NCBI GenBank assembly: GCA_020510985.1
Contig: CM035843.1
Span: 157,315,922-157,379,921, forward strand
Reading direction: 5' to 3'
Origin: Pholidichthys leucotaenia
Lineage: Eukaryota
Length of the DNA stretch: 64,000 bases
Shown here: one piece after another, positions 3,801 to 64,000 of the stretch
Numbering within the stretch: the stretch's first letter is position 1
Layout: every line of letters begins with the position of its first letter
Position numbers and translations under genes: made by a program
Notes under the pieces: model-generated
Told to the model about the DNA's origin: nothing
Seen by the model: the letters and a program-made list of their open reading frames with translations, nothing else
Databases searched by the model: none

Positions 3801-5345
3801 AGCACAACCGTCTACTTAGTTATCCTACATGGTATGATTATGTGCCCATACATATTCTCACCCTCCATAGCGACCGGTATTTTCCTAGTTGTATGCCGGA
3901 GGGGACCATTGTGTAAGTCTATTGCATCTTTTGCATTCAAAAACTATTAGGTTGTTACGTCTTTTTGCTATCTCTGCGAGCAGCCCTGCTTAGGTTGTAC
4001 AGTCTGACAGCCGTTGGTAGGAAAGACCTGCGAAACCTCTCGGTTGTGCACCTGGGATGATGTAGTCTGCTGCTAAATGAGCTCCTCAGTGCATTCAGTA
4101 TGTCCTGCATAGGGTGGAACTCGGACTCCAGCAGAGATGACAGTTTAGCCACCGTCCTTCTCTCTCCTATCTCCTCCACCGGGTCAAGGCGCTGCCCCAG
4201 GACAGAGCTAGCTTTCTTGATCAGTTTGTTCAGTCTCTTCCTATCGGCTGCTGTAATGCCACTGCCCCAGCAGACCACTCCAAAAGTGATGGCTGATGCC
4301 ACCACCGTGTCATAGAATGTCTTCAGCAGTGCCCCTTGTACACCAAAAGACCTGAGTCTCCTCAGTAGGAACAGCCTGCGCTGTCCCTTCTTGTAGAGTG
4401 TGTCAGTATTGTGTGACCAGTCTAGTTTATTGTTCAGATGAACACCCAGGTACTTGTAGGATGTCACCATCTCAATGTCTGTTCCCTGTATATTTACTGG
4501 TGCTGTGAGGGGTTGTCCATGCCTGCGGCAGTCCACCGCCAGCTCCTTAGTTTTCCTCGCGTTGATCTGGAGGCAGTTCCGATGGCACCAGTCCACGAAG
4601 TCCTGGATAAGCCCTTTGTACTCAGCTTCATCTCCATTGGAGATGAGGCCAACGATCGCAGAGTCATCAGAGAACTTCTGTAGATGGCAGTGTGTTGTGT
4701 TGTGTGAGAAGTCCGCAGTATAAAGAGTGAACAGGAAGGGAGCCAACACCATTCCCTGGGGGGCCCCCGTGCTACCGATGATCGTGTCGGACACACAGTC
4801 CCGGGTTCTCACAAACTGAGGCCGGTTCGTGAGGTAGTCCAGGATCCATGATGACAGGTGCTGGTCCACCCCTGCGCGCAGCAGCTTGTCCTTCAGGATC
4901 ATCGGTTGGATGGTGTTGAAAGCACTGGAGAAGTCAAAGAACATGATCCTCACCACATTCCCGGGCTTCTCCAGGTGGGACAGAGAACGGTGAAGGAGGA
5001 AGATCACCGCATCCTCCACCCCAATGCCATGCTGGTAGGCGAACTGGAGTGGATCCATCGCTGGTTCCACCAGGGGGCGGAGGTGAGCAAGGAGCAGTCT
5101 CTCCAGGGTCTTCATCATGTGGGACGTCAAGGCCACTGGTCTGTAGCTGTTCAGGTCTTTGGGGTGGGAAGTTTTTGGTACAGGTACCACACAAGATGTT
5201 TTCCACAGCTGTGGTACCCTCCCCAGCTTCAGGCTGGAAGATGCTCCTAATCTTGGCAATATTACGCAAATGATAGAAGGCAGTCTTAGAAACAAGTTAA
5301 ATATGTGAATTAAAAAACAGATCTTGATCAAAAATAACTCCAAGG
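3800..5345 (-). mobile_element. LINE (CR1/L2/Rex1-like) 3' portion: RT domain, C-terminal region and 3'UTR
   Basis: ORF 3955..5343(-), 462 aa, carries the RT motifs [30 protein letters not shown] and KTKELAVD, then the conserved C-terminal tail ending RLYN. It lies on the opposite strand to the adjacent array. Confidence 0.8.
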
Positions 5346-46546: not shown

Positions 46547-49500
46547 TCAGAATCAGAATCAGAATCAGAATCAGAATCAGAATCAGGTTTATTGCCATTG
46601 TTCATGTAGTACACAAACTAGGAATTTGTCTCGGTACAATGCTGCAACATTAAACATGATAAGATAAGAGAAATAAACTATACATGTAATAAAGTGTAGG
46701 ATAAGATTAAGTGATACTGGTCAACAGTTAAAATATATATTAGCCAGCAGCAGATACTGTGGAGAACCATATAGTGCAGTCGGTAATGCAGGAAGAAAAC
46801 AGTGATGATTGACATGAGTCTGGTTGAGCTGCTGTACATGGTGCACGAGAGTCAATAAGTCACTTAGTGTTCAGCAGTCTAATGGCAGAGGGGAAGAAGC
46901 TGTTCATGTGACGGGAGGTTTTAGTCTGGATGGACCGAAGTCTTCTACCAGAGGGGAGGGGGGCAAACAGTACGTGACCAGGGTGTGAGGGATCGGCTAT
47001 GATCCGGCCAGCACGCCTCCGGGTCCTGGAGATGTACAGATCCTGGAGAGATGGGAGCTTGCAGCCGATCACCTTCTCAGCAGTGCGCACGACGCGCTGC
47101 AGCCTTAGTCTGTCTCTGGCAGTGGCTCCTGCGTACCACACGGTTATGGAGGTGGTGAGGATGGACTCGATGATGGCTGTGTAGAACTGCACTAACATCT
47201 TGGTGGGTAGCTTGAGCTTCCTCAGCTGCCGCAGGAAGAACATCCTCTGCTGGGCTTTTTTGATGAGTGAGCTGATGGTCAGCTCCCATTTGAGGTCCCT
47301 GGTGATGGTAGTGCCTAGGAAGCGGAAGGAATCAGCAGTGGTGATGGGAGAGCCTGAGAGGGTGAGGGGGGGCAGAGGAGTAGTGACTTTCCTGAAGTCT
47401 ACAATCATCTCCACTGTCTTCAGAGCGTTCAGCTGCAGGTTGTTATTGCTGCACCAGGACGCCAGCTGGGCCACCTCTCTCCTGTAGGCGGACTCGTCGC
47501 CGTTGGAGATGAGCCCGATGAGGGTGGTGTCGTCCGCAAACTTGATCAACTTGACAGACTGGTGGCTGGAGGTGCAGGAGTTGGTGTAAAGGGAGAAGAG
47601 TAGGGGGGAAAGTACACAGCGCTGGGGTGATCCGGTGCTGATGCTAGTATAGTCTGAGACAGTCTTTCCCAGCCGCACATGCTGCCTCCGGTCCGTCAGG
47701 AAGTCGATGATCCACCTGCAGAGGGAGTCAGGCACGTTGAGCAGGGACAGCTTGTCCCGGAGCAGAGCGGGGCGGATGGTGTTGAATGCGGAGCTGAAGT
47801 CCACAAACAGGATCCTGGCGTAGGTTCCCGGGGAGTCCAGGTGCTGCAGGATGGAGTGGAGGGCCAGGTTGACTGCATCGTCTACAGACCTTTTGGCTCG
47901 GTAGGCAAACTGCAGCGGGTCCAAGAGAGGGGTGGTGATGGACTTGAGGTGGGACAGGACCAGGCGCTCAAAGGACTTCATGACTACAGAGGTGAGTGCT
48001 ACAGGTCTGTAGTCATTAAGTCCAGTGATCCGTGGCTTCTTGGGGACAGGGATGATGGTGGAGGATTTGAGGCAGGACGGCACGTGGCATAACTTAAGGG
48101 AGGTGTTAAAAATGTCTGTGAATACAGGAGCCAGCTGTTTTGCACAGAGTCTCAGGGTGGAGGGAGACACGCCGTCTGGGCCGGGGGCCTTGCGCGGGTT
48201 CAGTCTGGAGAACTGTTTGAGCACATCCTGCTCACTGATGATAAGGGGAGGGGGGGAGGAGGGGGGGGTGCCTTAAATGAAGTAGGGAATGTGGAGGCTG
48301 TGGAGCTGGAGGGAGGGGGGAAGTTGGACACAGATGACGAGGTGTCAAAACGGGCATAGTGTTGGGACAGTCTTTGACAAAGGGCTTTGTCATCCTGACC
48401 TTTAGGAGCCTTAGGTCGATAGTTGGTGATTTGCCTCAGTCCTCTCCACACAGACATATATCCACAAAAGTGGATATATGAGTTCACAGTGTCCGTGTAC
48501 TCATCCAGATCATGCATGGCTCCTTTAAGCATGCCCCAGTCAGATATTTCCATGCACGTTTCCAGCTTCTCCTCAGCATCACTGGTCCGTATCTTCGTAG
48601 TGCTCACAACAGGTTTAGTGAGCTTCAATCTCTGTCTGTATGTGGGAATGAGGTGAACCATCACGTGATCAGATAATCCCAGCGCAGCTCGAGGGACAGC
48701 GCGATATGCGTCTTTCACTGTGGTGTAACAGTGATCCAGTGTGTTTAATCCTCTGGTGGGGCATTTAATAAACTGTTTGTAGCGGGGGAGATCGTGGCTC
48801 AGATTGCACTGATTAAAGTCGCCAGCCACAATAATCAGCGAGTCTGGAAAACTCCGCTCTGTGTGTTGAATGTGATCCGCGAGCACGCGCTGAGCTTCGC
48901 GCGTGTCCGCGTCGGGAGGGGCGTACACAGCGATCATTATGAAAGAAGCAAACTCCCGCGGGGAATAGAAGGGCTTGCAATTGATAACAAGAAATTCCAA
49001 GGCAGGAGAACAGTGTTTGGAAATTACCATTACATCAGAGCACCAGCTGCAGTTGATGTAGAAGCAGACACCGCCTCCTGTGGTCTTGCCGGAAAGCTCT
49101 GTGTCACGATCAGCACGGAAGAGCTGAAAGCTGTCGAGGCGCAGCGCGCTGTCCGGTATATTTTCCCGGAGCCAGGTCTCAGTAAAGCAGAGGACAGCTG
49201 AGGAGGCGAGGTCCTTAAAACGCATCAGCAGTCTCAGTTCATCTACCTTGTTAGAGAGAGAGTTGGTATTGGACAGAAATATGCCAGGCAGCGCCGTTCG
49301 CGAGCCTGTCCTGCGAAGTCGTACGAGAGCGCCCGCTCATCTTCCTCTCTTCCGCCGTCTCACTTTCCGAGCCAAACAATAAACCAGATCGGCGGCAGGG
49401 GCTAGAAAAACTGGGAGGAGGTCCGTGGGGGTGAAAGTCCTGATATTTAGAAGTTCTTCACGGGTATAAGTGCAAGCAGACACACAATTGACAAACAAAA

Positions 49501-49550
49501 ACAAACAAAGAGCGCAGCGAAGCACCATGTCGACCGCTGTGGGCGCCATC
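46547..49550 (-). mobile_element. L2-type LINE (~3.0 kb: ORF2 endonuclease plus RT, (TGATTC)n 3' tail) nested inside the Gypsy copy B integrase/RNase H region
   Basis: (gaatca)n at 46547..46586 forms the 3' tail. RT ORF 46860..48224(-) carries [33 protein letters not shown] and ends [10 protein letters not shown]-endonuclease ORF 48200..49225(-) carries CFTETWL and IVAGDFNQ. The ORF2 N-terminus 49337..49549 carries TREELLNIR and RKRGR. There is a frameshift near 48210. Confidence 0.85.
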
Positions 49551-50399
49551 TTGGATGCTTTCCAAGATGTAGTCCGCCACTACATTCAGTTTACCAGACA
49601 CATGCTGAATATCAGTAGTAAACTCTGAGATCGCGGCCAGCTGTCTCTGCTGCCGGCCCGACCACGGTTCTGAAACCTTGGCCATCGCGAATGTTAGTGG
49701 CTTGTGGTCCACGAACGTGGTGAAGCTGCGCCCTTCCAGCCAGAACTGGAAGTGGCATATGGCCAGGTGAAGGGCCAGCAACTCTCTGCCGAATGCGTTG
49801 TATTTACGTTCGCTGTCGCGCAAAGTTCTGCTGAAAAAAGGGAGCGGCTGCCAAGCCCCGGCGACGCGCTGCTCCACGACAGCCCCTATGGCCATGTCTG
49901 AAGCGTCGGTGGTGAGCGCTATGCGGGCCGTCGGGTCTGGATGCGTCACCAGTGCGGCGTTTGACAGGGCTGCTTTAACTTCCGAGAACGCCCGCTCTCG
50001 CTCCGGGGTCCATTCGACCCTATCCGCGGGTTTCTGCTTCTTGAGCGCGGCGTATAATGGTTGCATGAGCTGCGCCGTGCAGGGAAAGAAATGGTTATAA
50101 AAGTTCACCATTCCCAAAAATTCCTGCAGCGCGCTGACGGTCTGAGGCCAGGGAAAATCCGCCACGGTGCCCACCTTGTCGGGCAGCGGGATCGCTCCTT
50201 CGGGAGAGATGCGGTGCCCCAAAAAATCAATCTCCGTCATGCCGAACTGGCATTTCGCCGGGTTGATTATTAACCCGTGCTCCTTCAACCTCCGGAAAAC
50301 CGTCCTGAGGTGGGTTTCGTGTTCGTCTTCGGACGCACTGGCTACCAGGATATCGTCCACGTAGACGAACACAAACGGGGAGATCGCGCAGCACTGCAT
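49458..50399 (-). CDS. Gypsy copy B RT C-terminus plus RNase H ORF
   Basis: [11 protein letters not shown] (the YxDD box), [13 protein letters not shown], and the RNase H segment [17 protein letters not shown]. The last ~30 codons read through into the L2 5' end. Confidence 0.8.
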
Positions 50400-50503
50400 C
50401 CATCATGCGCTGGAACGTCTGTGCCGCTCCTTTTAACCCGAATGGCATGCGCAGGAACTCGAATAGACCGAATGGAGTTATTACCGCTGTTTTGGGTATG
50501 TCC

Positions 50504-52084
50504 TCAGCGCGCACTGGGACTTGGTGGTAACCGCGGACCAGGTCTATTTTGGGAAAAAATGCGCTCTCCGGCGAGGTGAACGGAAAAATCCTGTATGTGG
50601 GGAATTGGGTAGTGGTCGTGCGCTGTGGCGTTGTTCAACCTGTGGAAATCCCTGCACGGTTGCCACGATCCCTCAGCCTTAGGGACCATGTCTAGCGGGG
50701 AAGCCCATGGGCTGTTCGAGCGCCTGATGATGCCCAACCTTTCCAGGTTGGCGAACTCCTCGCGCGCTATGGCCAGTTTAGCTGCGTCCAGGCGCCGAGG
50801 TCTTGCAAAAACGGGCGGCCCGGTGGTGGTGATAAAGTGCTCCACCCCGTGTTTAACGATGCCCGCGGAAAACATCGGGACCGTGAGTGCTGGGAACTGA
50901 GTGAGCAGTGTGTGGAACTTACCGCCTGTAGCTGTGACGTTGGCTTGTGCTGTTGGTTGGGTCACTCGAGCTATACAGGGGAGAGAGTCAAAGGACAGTG
51001 CATTAACCAAACGCCTGTTAGCAACATCAACCAGTAAACCATGTGCACACAGAAAATCAGCCCCCAGTATGTGGTAATTCAGTGCTGCTACGACAAAAGT
51101 CCACTCATATGTACGGCCGTGTAGAGATAAGAGCAGAGTCCTCTCACTGGGGCCGCTAGATCCTGCCAGCTGGTCAGCGTAGGTCGGCCAGATGAAGCTC
51201 TTCTGGGCTCTGGTGTCCACGAGGAAACGCCTCTCAGAGCGTGCATCCGTTAAGCAGAGCAGCTTGTTCTCTTCACCGAGGGTCACAGCTGCTACCGACC
51301 CCCGGCCTTGGCGTTTTCCCGAGCGTTTGAATTGGCACGGTGGCGCACATCTGCATGCCTTCTCTCCGAAGCGGCGGTGGTAGAAACAGAGCGTGTCTCT
51401 CTGACGCTCCTTGGCCCCCGCTGCCGCTACCGTCGGTGGCTCCTCGCCTCCTCTGGTCGTCTCGCTGGGCTCTGCCGCTGCTGCGTTGACTGTGATCGCC
51501 CTGGTGGTGATGATGATCCGGTCTGCCTCCTGGGCTAGCGCACGGTAGTCGCGCGTGGCCAGCCACGGCGAATTGGCCAGAACCGCTCTCGCCACTGTTG
51601 GAAGGTTCCAGAGGAAGAGGTGGGCAAACAGAAAGTGCGCGTCGTCCGTGCCCATCAACGCCAGCATCTTCTTCATCAGGTCTATGGCTGAACCATCTCC
51701 TAACTCGGTCCGCGTCAGGAGCCTCTCTGCTCTCTCACATTCCGAGAGTGTGTAGCGCTGGATAAGTGCAGCCTTGAGTGCTTCATATTTGCTGCTGGCT
51801 GGTGGCTGATTGAGCAGGCTCACTACCTGCTGAGCTGTGCGGGCGTCGAGCGCTGCGACCACATGATAGAATCTGGTATCATCTACCATTACTCCCTGGA
51901 GGGTGAACTGGGCCTCGGTGAGGTGGAACCAAGAGCGTGGGTTGTGCTGCCAGAAATCCGGTAGCTTGACTGAAACCGCACACGCATGGCTGGGGGTTCC
52001 AGTCCTGGCTGTCTGTGGGATGGCTGCCGCCCCGCTGTAGCTTCCTGACCGGGCCGGCTCCAGGGATCTTGCCTCGTGTTCCAT
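50504..52084 (-). CDS. Gypsy copy B gag-protease-RT N-terminal ORF (526 aa)
   Basis: A gag-like region; a protease-like segment around [13 protein letters not shown]; RT motifs [27 protein letters not shown] and YPIPHIQDF. Confidence 0.75.
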
Positions 52085-52959: not shown

Positions 52960-55860
<2,901 letters not shown>

Positions 55861-58845: not shown

Positions 58846-59370
58846 GGATAATTACCTCCGCCAAGGAGGTTATGTTTTCATCAGCGTTGGTTTGTCTGTC
58901 TGTCTGTCTGTTTGTTTGTTAGCAAGATAACTCAAAAAGTTATGGACGGATATTCATGAAATTTTCAGAGATTGTCAGAAATGGGGTATCCTACAGATGA
59001 TTAGATTTTGGTGATGATCTGAGAGTGCATGCCTCCACCAAGGGCTTTGTTTGTATTTGTGCAGCAGGATTACACAAAAACTACTGGATGGATTGGGATG
59101 AAATTTTCACCACAGGTGGTTCTTGGGCTAGAGAGGAACCCATTATATTTTGGTGATTGTCTGAGAATGCATACCTCAGCCAAGGCTCTTATCTTCTCAC
59201 AATATGTTAGCAACAATACTCCAAAACTGATGGACAGACTTTGATGCAATTTTCACCACAAGTGGCTATAGGCCTACACACAAACCCATTACATTTTGGA
59301 GGTAATCCATGAGAAACGGAAGGAGCCTTGGCGGAGGTATGTGCTCTATGAGTGCTTTTCTAGTTAAAAA
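58846..59370 (+). repeat. Rep-Z: unclassified ~500-bp interspersed element with internal ~130-bp subrepeats and the terminal signature ACCTCCGCCAAGG and CCTTGGCGGAGGT..CTAGTTAAA
   Basis: An inverted partial copy sits at the window end, 63895..64000. Pieces occur inside each tandem-array unit (2350..2560, 3560..3780) and at 57690..57770. Confidence 0.5.
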
Positions 59371-60149
59371 TCTGATCCGATAGCAAAATTAACAGATCTT
59401 TGGACTTTAGATAAAAGAACTTCTGGTGTGGGATTGTTCAATAAAAATATTATAAAAATAAAGTCAAGATTAAAGCTTACATTAAATTAAAACGGTGGCT
59501 TTACAGAAAGTTTAACAGGGAAAAGTTATAAGAATAAATGTCTTCTTCTTCTTCGTCGATCGCTAGATGATCACACCAGCTGCCCTGACGAATGCTGCCG
59601 TCCTGCGGAGGTCCCCGAGGTCCCCGTGCAGCTTTTGGTTCAACGATGTGGGGTCAGGGAATAAATGTCTAGGATTGGAGTTTTTAACTCCTAATTAGAA
59701 TTGAGCTCAAGAAAGAAAGAATGCCTAGGCGTTTAAACAAAAATTAAGATACAAAGAGGTTACAAAAAAAACCCAAAAACAGGATACTTCAGGCTCTGTG
59801 ATCATAGAGAAGAAACACATGGGATAAGTCCCTTTGTTCTCCCGAAAAGTTCTCTGCTGTGTGAATAGCACCTCACAAAAGAAAACTCAGAAATAGCCAG
59901 AAAAGCAAGTTACAGTTAGGCCCAGAAATATTTGGACAGTGACACAATCTTCATGATTTGGGCTCTGCATGCCACCACATTGGATTTGAAATGAAACAAC
60001 TACAACGGAATTGAAGTGCAGACTTTAAGGTTTAATTCAAGGGGTTGAACAAAGATATATGATTAAACATGTAGTAATTGTAACTATTTTTATACAAATG
60101 CTCCTCATTTCAGGGGCTCAAAAGTAATTGGACAAATAAACATAACCCT

Positions 60150-62059
60150 GTGGGTGACCCCCACAGCCTTCGGGACAAGCAGAGTGCTCAGCTGGAACAA
60201 TTAGCAGAACAGTGAGATGTATGGACTGATACCAATATGTAGATGTGCCTTGCAACCTCTTTTGTCCTACAGCTCCAGAGCAGAGAGGAATTCTGGCGCC
60301 AGTAATCCTGCTATTGATATGTGTGACTCTCATGTAAATGTCCCATGTATTCCTGCTGTACTGTGATGCTAATGTGCCATGCATGCATTGTCTAGCTGGG
60401 TATATAAGTCAACCATATCGCTTGCTCTCTCTCTTACTCTCTTTTTGATCACACGCATTGCCTGTTTGCTGATGAGAGACACAGGGCTCGCTTCAGCGCG
60501 CACCCACAGCGCTGGAGTGAGTCTCGTGATGGTGGATGAATAAAACACCCTTTTAAACTTTAGTTCACCGTGTCCTGCCTGCACTTATTCCTTGCCTCCA
60601 CACTTGGGTTCCCTTAGCTCATCCGCCACACTGGTGACCCCGTCCGAAGACAAGAACACGCTGACGACGAACGCAGCTCCTGGCGGTGACTCCTACGACA
60701 AGCGAACGCAGCTGCCTGACACAAATGGACTGCCCTCCCTTCTGCCACATGGGAGACCTCGACGCAGAACCGACACCAGGCGAACTCCCTCGGAGATCAT
60801 CCACGACCGGGAAGGCTGCAGAAAGCGTCATGGTGCGACCCTCGCCTGAGATCGGGACATCCACGCTGGGACCGCCCGAGGGACAAAGAGTCTCTACTCC
60901 CTCTCACCGCTCCTCCGCATCCACACGAGCGCGCACGCACCATGACCCGGCACGAGTGAACGACAGCAACAGCCAAGACAGGGAGGACCATCGGGGGGTT
61001 ACGAGGACAGCGCACCACGCACGGGACAATACCGGCTCCACAGACCGCCTTCGTCCTCCGCCGCTGCACACGCCTGAGAAGCACGGCTGACCGCCATCCT
61101 CGGAACCTTCAGGGCTGCTCACACACCTGAAGCACACACGCAGCCCGCACACAGGATTTTGTATGGGTCTCAGCCACGGCGCACAATGGGAATTCAGCTG
61201 TCAGCTGTCCTCGAGGGCTTTAGGGCTGCGCCCGCACCTAAAGCCAACATGCCAAGTCCCCCACACAGCTCCAGCTTTTGTTTTTTTCTTCATGGCTGCG
61301 ACGCATCCTCGCAGGACTGAAGCCGCGAGAGGAGTCAGAGACTAATGTTTCTTCTCACAGCCGCTGTGGACCTCTGCCACGTTCAACGGGACAGCCCCTC
61401 CACATCGTGGGTCCACATGCAATTTTTGCGCGGCCCGGACAACTTTGCCGTCCCGGGCCGGAACTCGCTACCCCCACCCTCCTCCCTCCCCCTCCTCCGG
61501 CACAGAGCTTTTCCACGCAGCTCGCTTCCAAAGCCGGACGATCGATGCCTCAGCACCCTGCTGAGCCCTCTGGGGGGGCGGGGGTGACTCCCACAGCCTT
61601 CGGGACAAGCAGAGCGCTCAGCTGGAGCAATTAGCAGAACAATGAGATGTATGGACTGATATCAATATGTAGATGTGCCTTGCAACCTCTTTTGTCCTAC
61701 AGCTCCAGAGCAGAGAGGAATTCCGGCGCCAGTAATCCTGCTATTGATATGTGTGACTCTCATGTAAATGTCCCATGCATTCCTGCTGTACTGTGATGCT
61801 GATGTGCCATGCATGCATTGTCTAGCTGGGAATATAAGTCAACCATATCGCTTGCTCTCTCTCTTACTCTCTTTTTGATCACACGCATTGCCTGTTTGCT
61901 GATGAGAGATACAAGGCTCGCTCCAGCGCACACCCACAGCGCTGGAGTGAGTCTCGTGATGGTGGATGAATAAAACACCCTTTTAAACTTTAGTTCACCG
62001 TGTCCTGCTTGCACTTATTCCGTGCCTCCACACTTGGGTTCCCTTAGCTCATCCGCCAC
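60150..62059 (+). mobile_element. Non-autonomous LTR-like element (TRIM/LARD-type: ~480-bp direct LTRs plus a ~950-bp GC-rich core) nested in the 3' region of Tc1 no. 5
   Basis: Direct repeats 60150..60630 and ~61581..62059. A putative PBS cTGGTGACCCCGTCC lies directly after the 5' repeat, and a G-rich tract tgggggggcggggg lies before the 3' repeat. The hexamer AACCCT flanks both sides, at 60144..60149 and 62060..62065. Confidence 0.65.
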
Positions 62060-62082
62060 AACCCTAAGTAAAGTGTTACTTT

Positions 62083-63093
62083 TCAATATTTTGTTGAGGA
62101 TCCTTTGCAGGCAATGACTTCCTGAAGTCTGGAACCCATGGACATCACCAAACACTGGGTTTCCTCCTTTGTGGTGCTTTGCCAGGCCTTTACTGCAGCT
62201 GTCTTCAGTTGTTGCTTGTTTGTGGGTCTTTCTGCCTTAAGTTTTGTCTTGAGCAAGTGAAATGCATGCTCGATTGGGTTGAGATCTGGTGATTGACTCA
62301 GCCATTGCAGAATATTCCACTTCTTTGCTTTAAAAATTCCTGGGTTGCTTTTGCAGTATGGATCATTGTCCATCTGTACTGTGAAGCGCCGTCCAACCAA
62401 CTTTGCTGCATTTGGCTGAATCTGAGCAGAAAGTATATCCCTATACACTTCAGAATTCATCCGGCTGCTTCTGTCTTTTGTCACATCATCAATAAACACA
62501 AATGACCCAGTGCCATTGGAAGCCATGCATGCCCATGCCATCACACTGCCTCCACCATGTTTTACAGATGATGTGGTGTGCTTTGGATCATGAGCAGTTC
62601 CAATTCTTCTCCAAACTTTCTTCTTCCCATCATTCTGGTACAAGTTGATCTTAGTCTCATCTGTCCAAAGAATGCTGTTCCAGAACTGGGCTGGCTTCTT
62701 CAGGTGTTTTTTCACAAAGTCAATTCTGGCCTTTCTATTTTTGAGGCTGATTAATGGTTTGCACCTTGTGGTGAATCCTTTGTATTTACTCTCATGAAGT
62801 CTTCTCTTTATGGTAGACTTAGATACTGATACACCTACTTCCTGGAGAGTGTTCTTCACTTGAGTGGATGTTGTGAAGAGATTTCTGCGATCATCCACCA
62901 CTGTTGTCTTCCGTGGACGTCCAGGCCTTTTTGAGTTCCCAAGCTCACCAGTGCACTCTTTTTTTCTCAGAATGTACCAAACTGTTGATTTGGCCACTCC
63001 TAACATTTCTGCTATCTCTCTGATGGATTTCTTCTTTTTTTTCAGCCTCAGGATGGTCTGTTTCACCTCCATTGAGAGCTCCTTTGACCGCAT
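62083..63093 (-). CDS. Tc1 transposase, complete 336-aa ORF with no internal stop or frameshift
   Basis: MRSKELSMEVKQ and GVAKSTVWYILRK form the HTH region. Motifs WTDETKINLY, VQMDNDPYC and [15 protein letters not shown] follow (DDE-like spacing), and the ORF ends with a stop after KGSSTKY. Confidence 0.8.
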   Translation of the reverse strand: MRSKELSMEVKQTILRLKKKKKSIREIAEMLGVAKSTVWYILRKKECTGELGNSKRPGRPRKTTVVDDRRNLFTTSTQVKNTLQEVGVSVSKSTIKRRLHESKYKGFTTRCKPLISLKNRKARIDFVKKHLKKPAQFWNSILWTDETKINLYQNDGKKKVWRRIGTAHDPKHTTSSVKHGGGSVMAWACMASNGTGSFVFIDDVTKDRSSRMNSEVYRDILSAQIQPNAAKLVGRRFTVQMDNDPYCKSNPGIFKAKKWNILQWLSQSPDLNPIEHAFHLLKTKLKAERPTNKQQLKTAAVKAWQSTTKEETQCLVMSMGSRLQEVIACKGSSTKY

Positions 63094-64000
63094 GTTGTGT
63101 GTTCACAGCAACAGCTTCCAAATGCAAACGCCACACCTGGAATCAACTCCAGACCTTTTAACTGCTTAACTGATGACAGGTTAATGAGGGAAGAGCCCAT
63201 GCGCCCTTGTTATTTATTTATTTTTTTTTTGCAGCCTTCTGAGTCAATTGTCCAGTTACCTTTGGTCCCTTGAAAAAGAGGCGGCTACATATTAAAGAGC
63301 TGTGATTCCTAAACCCTTGCTCCAATTTGGATGTGAATACTCTCAAATTACAGCTGAGAGTCTGCACTTTAAGCCCATATTGATTATATAATTATATCCT
63401 GAATAGGTTTTCGTAAACAGCTAAATAACAAAACTTGTGTCACTGTCCAAATATTTCTGGGCCTAACTGTACCTGAGAAAGCAGAAAAAGATTCAAAACA
63501 CCTGGACATCAAACTGTAAAATATACATAAAATTAAATGGGTCACCTGAAGAAGCCAAGGTCATTAACATCCGAAATATTATGGAATTGGACAAATATCA
63601 ATGAATATTATGTACTGGAGTCGACAGCAACAAGAGACAATTGTAGGACACTGAAGGATTATACTCATCTGCAACAGGACATTTAACAACATGAAACAAA
63701 AAGATCAACAAACAGGAACATCAGGAATGGAAAGGTTTTGAATATACGGATCACAACCCAAAGGACGTAGAATATAACATAGACCATGACAATAATTTAT
63801 TTAGCTCCATCAATAATGACTGTAGTTACTATACAGATGAACAGTTTAACACTAGGGTCACATCTGATTTCAATATTTCTATGATCCACTTCAACAGCAG
63901 AAGTCTCTATGCCAACTTTAACTAGAAGAGCACTCATAGAGCGCATACCTCCGCCAAGGCTCCTTCCGTTTCTCATGGATTACCTCCAAAATGTAATGGG

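Follow-up and report, generated by a model that had tools for sequence, protein, structure and literature searches.

Does the Tc1 element in a 64,000-nucleotide stretch of the Pholidichthys leucotaenia genome (assembly GCA_020510985.1, contig CM035843.1, positions 157,315,922 to 157,379,921; hereafter the window, with coordinates counted from its first letter) still encode a transposase that can move itself or its relatives? An earlier note on this DNA took the 336-codon open reading frame (ORF) of the element at 59911-63471 for an intact, possibly functional transposase gene and the element for a candidate autonomous or trans-mobilising source, and let the matter hang on the catalytic residues and on the helix-turn-helix that binds the terminal inverted repeats (TIRs). 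Comparison with other copies leads us, with high confidence, to a different answer: the locus holds a neutrally decaying copy, no longer autonomous, of a fairly young Tc1 (DD34E) family with ends of the inverted repeat/direct repeat (IR/DR) type, whose functional product has 345 amino acids (aa).

The element is a copy of a Tc1/DD34E family with IR/DR ends like those of Sleeping Beauty (SB), and this family is already represented in public data. As the DNA reference set, we used six same-family copies (L001, L002, and L014-L017) from public assemblies, taken from contigs that encode the nearest protein matches and the members of their 90% clusters; at aligned bases, their identity to the window copy is 94.8-97.7%. 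L014 (NCBI GCA_028748325.1 JAMHJL010005533.1, 281-1922) and L015-L017 (Logan SRR25169340, SRR35290027, and SRR35290026, respectively) are full-length copies of 1.60-1.67 kb; L015-L017 are at least 99.5% identical to one another and L014 is about 96% identical to them. Each of these four copies encodes a 345-aa ORF that runs from MRSKELS to GFSTKY. A majority reconstruction from three copies, which serves as the reconstructed ancestor, also gives 345 aa, and the full-length relatives among the matches listed from a search of 5.8 billion proteins are mostly 338-351 aa long; aligned with relatives, the window protein has two gaps.

The earlier note was right that the ORF at 62083..63093 is complete, as it is open throughout on the minus strand, and alignment finds all three catalytic residues in place. 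However, the ORF is 9 aa shorter than the 345-aa family product because of a private 21-bp deletion plus a compensated frameshift, and its frame is open because 21 is divisible by three and 5 + 1 = 6, not because the gene is intact. The features on which this rests are:

62083..63093, minus strand: 336-codon ORF of a decayed Tc1 transposase (stop codon included), ATG start, TGA stop
62883..62884, minus strand: junction of the private 21-bp in-frame deletion; ILSMVKK lost between R70 and N71; aligns to SB 71-77
62659..62661, minus strand: catalytic D145 (WTDET), retained; aligns to SB D153
62368..62370, minus strand: catalytic D242 (QMDNDP), retained; aligns to SB D244
62332..62358, minus strand: out-of-frame patch YCKSNPGIF, codons 246-254, between the 5-bp and 1-bp deletions; replaces KHTAKATQEFF
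62269..62271, minus strand: catalytic E275 (NPIE), retained; aligns to SB E279, 32 rather than 34 residues after D242

Lesions were called private by a seven-copy DNA alignment (the window copy and its six siblings) and by a protein alignment, A3. The 21-bp, 5-bp, and 1-bp coding deletions occur in the window copy alone among the seven. In alignment A3, the segment lost with the 21-bp deletion is carried as ILS[ML]VK by all eight other sequences that cover the site. The 5-bp deletion adjoins codon 245, and 24 nt beyond it a run of T has lost 1 bp; the family sequence KHTAKATQEFF is intact in all 12 other A3 sequences that cover the patch, and the DNA between the two small deletions still codes for TAKATQEF in the ancestral frame. 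The compensated frameshift shortens the spacing between the second Asp and the Glu to 32 residues, compared with 34 in L014-L017, in the 345-aa relative P0002, and in SB. The patch starts four residues past the second catalytic Asp and costs the protein the K-H of DNDPKH. Across 28 relatives down to 56% identity, the Lys of this motif does not vary and the His is at least 90% conserved; the motif is also read in SB. We also considered whether the deletions mark a propagating subfamily; this was rejected, as neither the six DNA copies nor 12 close protein sequences share them.

Published work on SB describes what these regions do. In the SB crystal, D244 is positioned by the 243-251 loop, which is structured by H249 through stacking on residue 243 (PMC4820933). 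In the RED subdomain, helix 1 (aa 67-77) packs against helix 2 and is itself positively charged, and RED is required for recognition of the outer repeats and for completion of the synaptic complex (PMC7827188). The window ORF departs here from the PAI and RED arrangement of the Tc1 family, which its own family retains: seven residues of RED helix 1 are missing, so that the TIR-binding helix-turn-helix whose integrity the earlier note had made decisive is disrupted by the loss of ILSMVKK. Nor is the ORF co-linear with the full-length family transposase without indels. The domain scores follow the same course: HTH_Tnp_Tc3_2 scores 59.4 bits over profile positions 11-72 in the window ORF vs 80.9 bits over positions 1-72 in the reconstructed ancestor, DDE_3 scores 35.8 vs 60.8 bits, and the HTH_32 match is lost, the drop amounting to 21-25 bits. 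We therefore consider, on the evidence of these alignments, that the 336-aa protein is very probably unable to transpose anything.

Sequencing or assembly errors would be another source of such lesions, the real locus then encoding a 345-aa protein. The 1-bp deletion is where one would look for an error, since it falls in a T-run (six in the family, five in the window) that is a typical error site. The 21-bp and 5-bp deletions, however, lie in non-repetitive sequence and are untypical of errors, and with an error at the 1-bp change alone, the true locus would have a broken frame and not a restored one. In addition, about 27 private substitutions and an 8-bp insertion mark the copy, and we regard an origin of some of the indels in error as extremely improbable. 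The private coding substitutions of the window copy comprise nine nonsynonymous and four synonymous changes, and seven of the nine nonsynonymous ones (P72L, A127V, L198F, I233V, P265L, A325E, and F332S) fall in columns that are at least 90% conserved; this pattern looks like neutral decay in the absence of selection.

The element as a whole and its ends have the following features:

59911..63471, minus strand: whole Tc1 element, 3,561 bp including the flanking TA dinucleotides; co-linear with the 1.60-1.67-kb same-family copies L001 and L014-L017
59911..59912, no strand: left TA target-site duplication, read directly
63470..63471, no strand: right TA target-site duplication, read directly
63435..63471, minus strand: outer terminal repeat at the 5' end of the element in gene orientation; perfect inverted match to 59911-59947
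59911..59947, plus strand: outer terminal repeat at the 3' end of the element
63243..63275, minus strand: inner direct repeat of the 5' IR/DR; core with two private substitutions, 63260 A>G and 63255 T>C (gene orientation)
60108..60141, plus strand: inner direct repeat of the 3' IR/DR; consensus-like core CAAAAGTAATTGGACAA, with a nested long terminal repeat (LTR) element 7 bp inboard
63216..63223, minus strand: private 8-bp insertion in the 5' untranslated region (UTR), from the seven-copy alignment

The matching TIRs of about 37 bp that were noted earlier are confirmed: the outer inverted repeat TACAGTTAGGCCCAGAAATATTTGGACAGTGACACAA is identical between the two ends at 37 of 37 nt, TA included, and the TA duplication stands immediately outside the CAGT...ACTG termini, as in the Tc1 family. 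While these outer repeats are perfect, the ends themselves are longer than that figure implied: when aligned to each other, they form imperfect IR/DR-type repeats of about 230 bp, with an outer and an inner repeat per side, and the inner repeat core CAAAAGTAATTGGACAA is present on both sides of the element. The 23-nt TIR core has two exact occurrences in the window, vs 0.00 expected from shuffles, and is confined to the element at 59911-63471; no other copy of the family was found in the window. A literature search for the TIR sequence gave no match.

The case for a functional transposase, and with it for an autonomous or trans-mobilising source in which an LTR insertion sits harmlessly in the 3' UTR, draws on the open 336-codon frame, on D145, D242, and E275, on the perfect outer TIRs with their TA duplication, and on the position of the insertion outside both the ORF and the inner repeat. 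It is nevertheless very unlikely to hold, as the private 21-bp deletion lies in the RED helix-turn-helix, the compensated frameshift takes away the near-invariant K-H by the second Asp and converts DD34E to DD32E, the Pfam scores fall by 21-25 bits, nine nonsynonymous against four synonymous private changes give no sign of constraint, and the 5' inner repeat core carries two private substitutions. The description of the transposase as intact and possibly functional thus fails on the deletion in RED and the frameshift at the active-site loop, and the same private lesions, with 336 rather than 345 aa, leave the proposal of an autonomous or trans-mobilising source without support. On the sequence evidence, the candidates for an active element of this family would be the 345-aa ORFs of L014-L017, not the window locus.

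Several observations weigh against our preferred reading of a decaying, non-autonomous copy. Much of the protein is kept: the catalytic D, D, and E and the PAI helix-turn-helix are all in place, as are the GRPR motif, the basic region resembling a nuclear localization signal (NLS), the glycine-rich strip, and the C-terminus. The PAI subdomain is matched by HTH_SB (below the Pfam cutoff), HTH_23, and HTH_38. That the 7-aa deletion or the DD32E patch abolishes activity is a deduction from sequence comparison. AlphaFold2 gives the window ORF a mean confidence (predicted local distance difference test, pLDDT) of 48, with residues 133-274 below 50, too low for a meaningful comparison of folds, vs a pLDDT of 71 for the 345-aa relative P0002 from a similarly shallow alignment; the RNase-H-like core of the P0002 model matches SB 5CR4 and Mos1. 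As the method is unreliable for mutational effects and the two models were built from different alignments, this contrast is only supportive of our reading. Finally, the 345-aa ORFs come from comparison contigs, and a 345-aa copy in the same genome would be needed for passive mobilisation.

The retained N-terminal part also bears on the idea that the frame was kept open for a secondary role, either as a repressor or dominant-negative regulator that binds DNA but is catalytically dead, or in an early stage of domestication. The PAI helix-turn-helix, the AT-hook-like GRPR, and the basic NLS-like region are untouched, and in SB it is the PAI subdomain that makes the primary contact with the repeats (PMC7827188). 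Against this stand the neutral-looking pattern of substitutions, the TIRs and target-site duplication (TSD), still present as in an ordinary insertion, and the restriction of the lesions to one copy. By rough arithmetic, the chance of a frame staying open by accident is a few per cent, which is enough in a family of many copies; expression of the locus is purely hypothetical. Selection for such a role therefore appears exceedingly unlikely, and we return to the locus as a neutrally decaying copy.

The earlier note had also described an insertion of about 1.9 kb that lengthens the element in its 3' UTR, and this is borne out. The inserted sequence has the following features:

60149..62060, plus strand: nested LTR element of 1,912 bp, non-coding and antisense to the transposase gene
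60149..60630, plus strand: 5' LTR, 482 bp, TG...CA ends, TATATAAG at 60401, AATAAA at 60539
60632..60649, plus strand: primer-binding-site (PBS)-like sequence TGGTGACCCCGTCCGAAG, 1 nt past the 5' LTR, read directly
61570..61578, plus strand: putative G-rich polypurine tract; GGGGGGG abuts the 3' LTR
61579..62060, plus strand: 3' LTR, 482 bp; 479 bp align gap-free to the 5' LTR, 15 of them mismatched, Kimura two-parameter (K2P) distance 0.032
60145..60148, no strand: left ACCC target-site duplication
62061..62064, no strand: right ACCC target-site duplication

The unoccupied site, TTAGGGTTATG, is uninterrupted in all six same-family copies, and the insertion of the LTR element is therefore proven. 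At 18 bp beyond the stop codon, it interrupts neither the ORF nor the inner repeat; it is in the 3' UTR because the transposase gene is on the minus strand. Without the LTR element and one copy of its TSD, the Tc1 element measures 1,645 bp. Over 479 bp, the two LTRs share 96.9% identity; the 5' LTR has the form TGTG...CACA, and the opening bases of the 3' LTR have mutated to CGGG. The PBS-like stretch is TGG-initiated and opens with TGGTGACCCCG; its first 11 nt presumably resemble the tRNA-Trp PBS of avian retroviruses, and ARAGORN finds no tRNA in the window with which the stretch could be compared.

The nested insert is a non-autonomous LTR element. It shares with such retroelements, including terminal-repeat retrotransposons in miniature (TRIM), large retrotransposon derivatives (LARD), and non-coding derivatives of endogenous retroviruses, the direct LTRs, the TG..CA ends, a 4-bp TSD, TATA and AATAAA motifs in the LTR, and the absence of gag/pol; stretches that resemble a PBS and a polypurine tract lie where these would be expected. 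Its 948-bp interior holds only short ORFs and no significant Pfam match (one below-cutoff hit to PspC, E = 0.008) and no Rfam match, and it has no coding capacity for gag or pol. TRIM elements stay well below a total of about 1.5 kb and have LTRs of roughly 100-250 bp, and LARD elements have a non-coding internal domain of several kb and a total length above about 4 kb. The label "TRIM/LARD-like" given to the insert earlier holds in that this is a non-coding LTR element and not in the size classes it names: 1,912 bp with 482-bp LTRs exceeds TRIM, and the 948-bp interior is below LARD. The window contains no second copy of the LTR element, and no autonomous partner was identified.

The 3' LTR points into the transposase gene in antisense and contains a TATA-like AATATAAG at 61831 and an AATAAA at 61969. 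Read-through from it would give antisense transposase RNA, if the letters are read at face value. One could imagine that the 336-aa product, if expressed, acts as a DNA-binding, catalytically dead competitor that damps the transposition of its own, still young family, and that the antisense 3' LTR (AATATAAG, 61831) in addition yields antisense RNA against the transposase of the family; we hold such a regulatory function to be extremely improbable.

The order of events may be reconstructed as follows. A copy of about 1.65 kb, from a family that was still young, would have inserted at a TA dinucleotide, and a non-coding LTR retroelement would then have landed just inside the 3' inner repeat, 18 bp past the stop codon. 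The copy would have gathered about 2% substitutions and several indels in the course of neutral decay, its frame staying open by accident through the 21-bp loss and through 5-bp and 1-bp losses that cancel each other. The resulting protein would be without most of the C-terminal two-thirds of RED helix 1 and, at the loop and helix by which the second catalytic Asp is positioned, would contain a scrambled stretch that is shorter by two residues. Substitutions between the window copy and L015-type sequence amount to 2.3%, and the divergence per LTR is about 1.6% (half of 0.032). From these values, we infer that roughly a third of the lifetime of the Tc1 copy was over when the LTR element arrived; if the neutral rate is taken as 1-3 x 10^-9 per site per year, the age of this insertion would be, to an order of magnitude, roughly 5-16 million years. 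At present, the element could serve at most as a passive substrate for a same-family 345-aa transposase supplied in trans. The outer repeats of the element resemble the consensus. SB transposition requires all four repeats (PMC7827188) and the 5' inner repeat carries the two private substitutions at 63260 and 63255; therefore, even passive mobilisation is uncertain.

Among known systems, the same element as that in the window is found in an unnamed vertebrate Tc1/DD34E family that comprises L014-L017, the Xiphophorus maculatus 'Transposase' (UniRef A0A3B5Q0B9, our P0002), and the Polypterus senegalus 'TCB1 transposase, partial'. The window protein is 82-85% identical to the Xiphophorus entry and 75-80% identical to the listed Polypterus entries. 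The window copy has in common with its family the TIRs, the IR/DR layout, and the start and stop of the ORF, and differs from it by the three coding deletions, the 8-bp insertion in the 5' UTR, and the nested LTR element. The exact window ORF was not found in a collection of 15 billion proteins, and a metagenome scan with six patterns from the ORF, including the peptide QMDNDPYC, yielded no confirmed closely related locus, the best match being 78% identical.

The architecture is shared with Sleeping Beauty, the reconstructed salmonid Tc1 transposase with structures for its catalytic domain (PDB 5CR4), RED (5UNK), and PAI (2M8E): a paired-like domain of PAI and RED, a GRPR/AT-hook, a basic linker, an RNase-H-like DD34E core, IR/DR ends of about 230 bp, and a TA target. 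The window ORF aligns to the SB catalytic domain 5CR4 with E = 1.4e-45, and the P0002 model superposes on SB 5CR4 with a template modelling (TM) score of 0.74 at 42% identity. The TIR sequence of the family is unrelated to that of SB, and the window copy has a truncated RED helix 1 and a different, shorter stretch in place of the loop equivalent to SB 248-258. The ZB, ZB-like, and SB-like groups of Tc1/DD34E are elements of the same kind as the window copy (PMC9777934). The SB and ZB groups are 58-61% identical (PMC9777934); the 42% core identity to SB is below this range, and the family therefore probably belongs to a different Tc1 lineage within DD34E, a placement made by comparison with SB.

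Relatives among the listed protein matches, at 70-85% identity, come from Xiphophorus, Polypterus, Erpetoichthys, Leptobrachium (many entries), Collichthys, Salmo, and Oryzias, and the 90% protein cluster includes a fragment labelled Ascaphus truei. For Tc1 elements, such a patchy spread over distant vertebrates is commonly attributed to horizontal transfer.

The window, which is very dense in transposable elements, contains four other Tc1 copies, at 22.2, 25.2, 37.5, and 54.0 kb. Their protein identity to the ORF studied here is about 33-43%, and they therefore belong to different families. With tblastn, the copies at 22.2, 37.5, and 54.0 kb each break up into several segments, and the 25.2-kb copy matches residues 91-336 only. 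The fourth copy (53964-54914, plus strand, with a tblastn match to 55017), from a different family at 34% identity, has an open stretch of 316 codons with a full-length-scoring HTH_Tnp_Tc3_2 (77.3 bits) and HTH_SB (74 bits), which is better than in the element at 59911-63471; its C-terminal end runs on in another frame.

An 84-bp stretch stands inverted on either side of the element at 59911-63471, at 59285-59368 and 63917-64000; the two arms are 97.6% identical and the right one ends at the window edge. Weaker 40-bp matches to it occur at 1631-1670 and 2660-2699. The stretch looks like the end of an interspersed repeat (...CTTGGCGGAGGTATG[TC]GCTCTATGAGTGCT[TC]TTCTAGTT), present either as two facing copies or as the long TIRs of an enclosing element. 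An open frame at about 63600-63916 (plus strand) reads ...NISMIHFNSRSLYANFN and stops exactly where the 84-bp repeat starts; it presumably resembles the N-terminal endonuclease region of ORF2 of a long interspersed nuclear element (LINE). At 46860-52084 (minus strand), four consecutive ORFs of 454, 341, 313, and 526 aa carry Pfam matches to RVT_1 and ALKBH8_N, then RVT_1/RT_RNaseH, and then DUF7041, a domain order that suggests a LINE-type reverse transcriptase beside a pol/gag-like segment of an LTR retrotransposon. A 462-aa ORF at 3955-5343 (minus strand) has RVT_1 and ALKBH8_N, the same domain pair as at 46860-48224, and is probably a second copy of that LINE family.

By itself, the locus is of little weight, being one more decayed copy of a known family with a nested retroelement, and its lesson is methodological. 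The premise of the earlier note that ORF-bearing Tc1 copies are rare in vertebrates is weak, as hundreds of vertebrate genomes hold Tc1/DD34E copies that pass a combined criterion of TSD, TIR, and an ORF of at least 300 aa (PMC9777934). The window copy would count as intact under that same criterion (PMC9777934), yet it is defective. ORF length is a poor proxy for integrity: comparison with siblings exposes lesions in a copy that passes the criterion, and counts of "intact" or "potentially active" Tc1 elements that are based on ORF length alone are therefore inflated.

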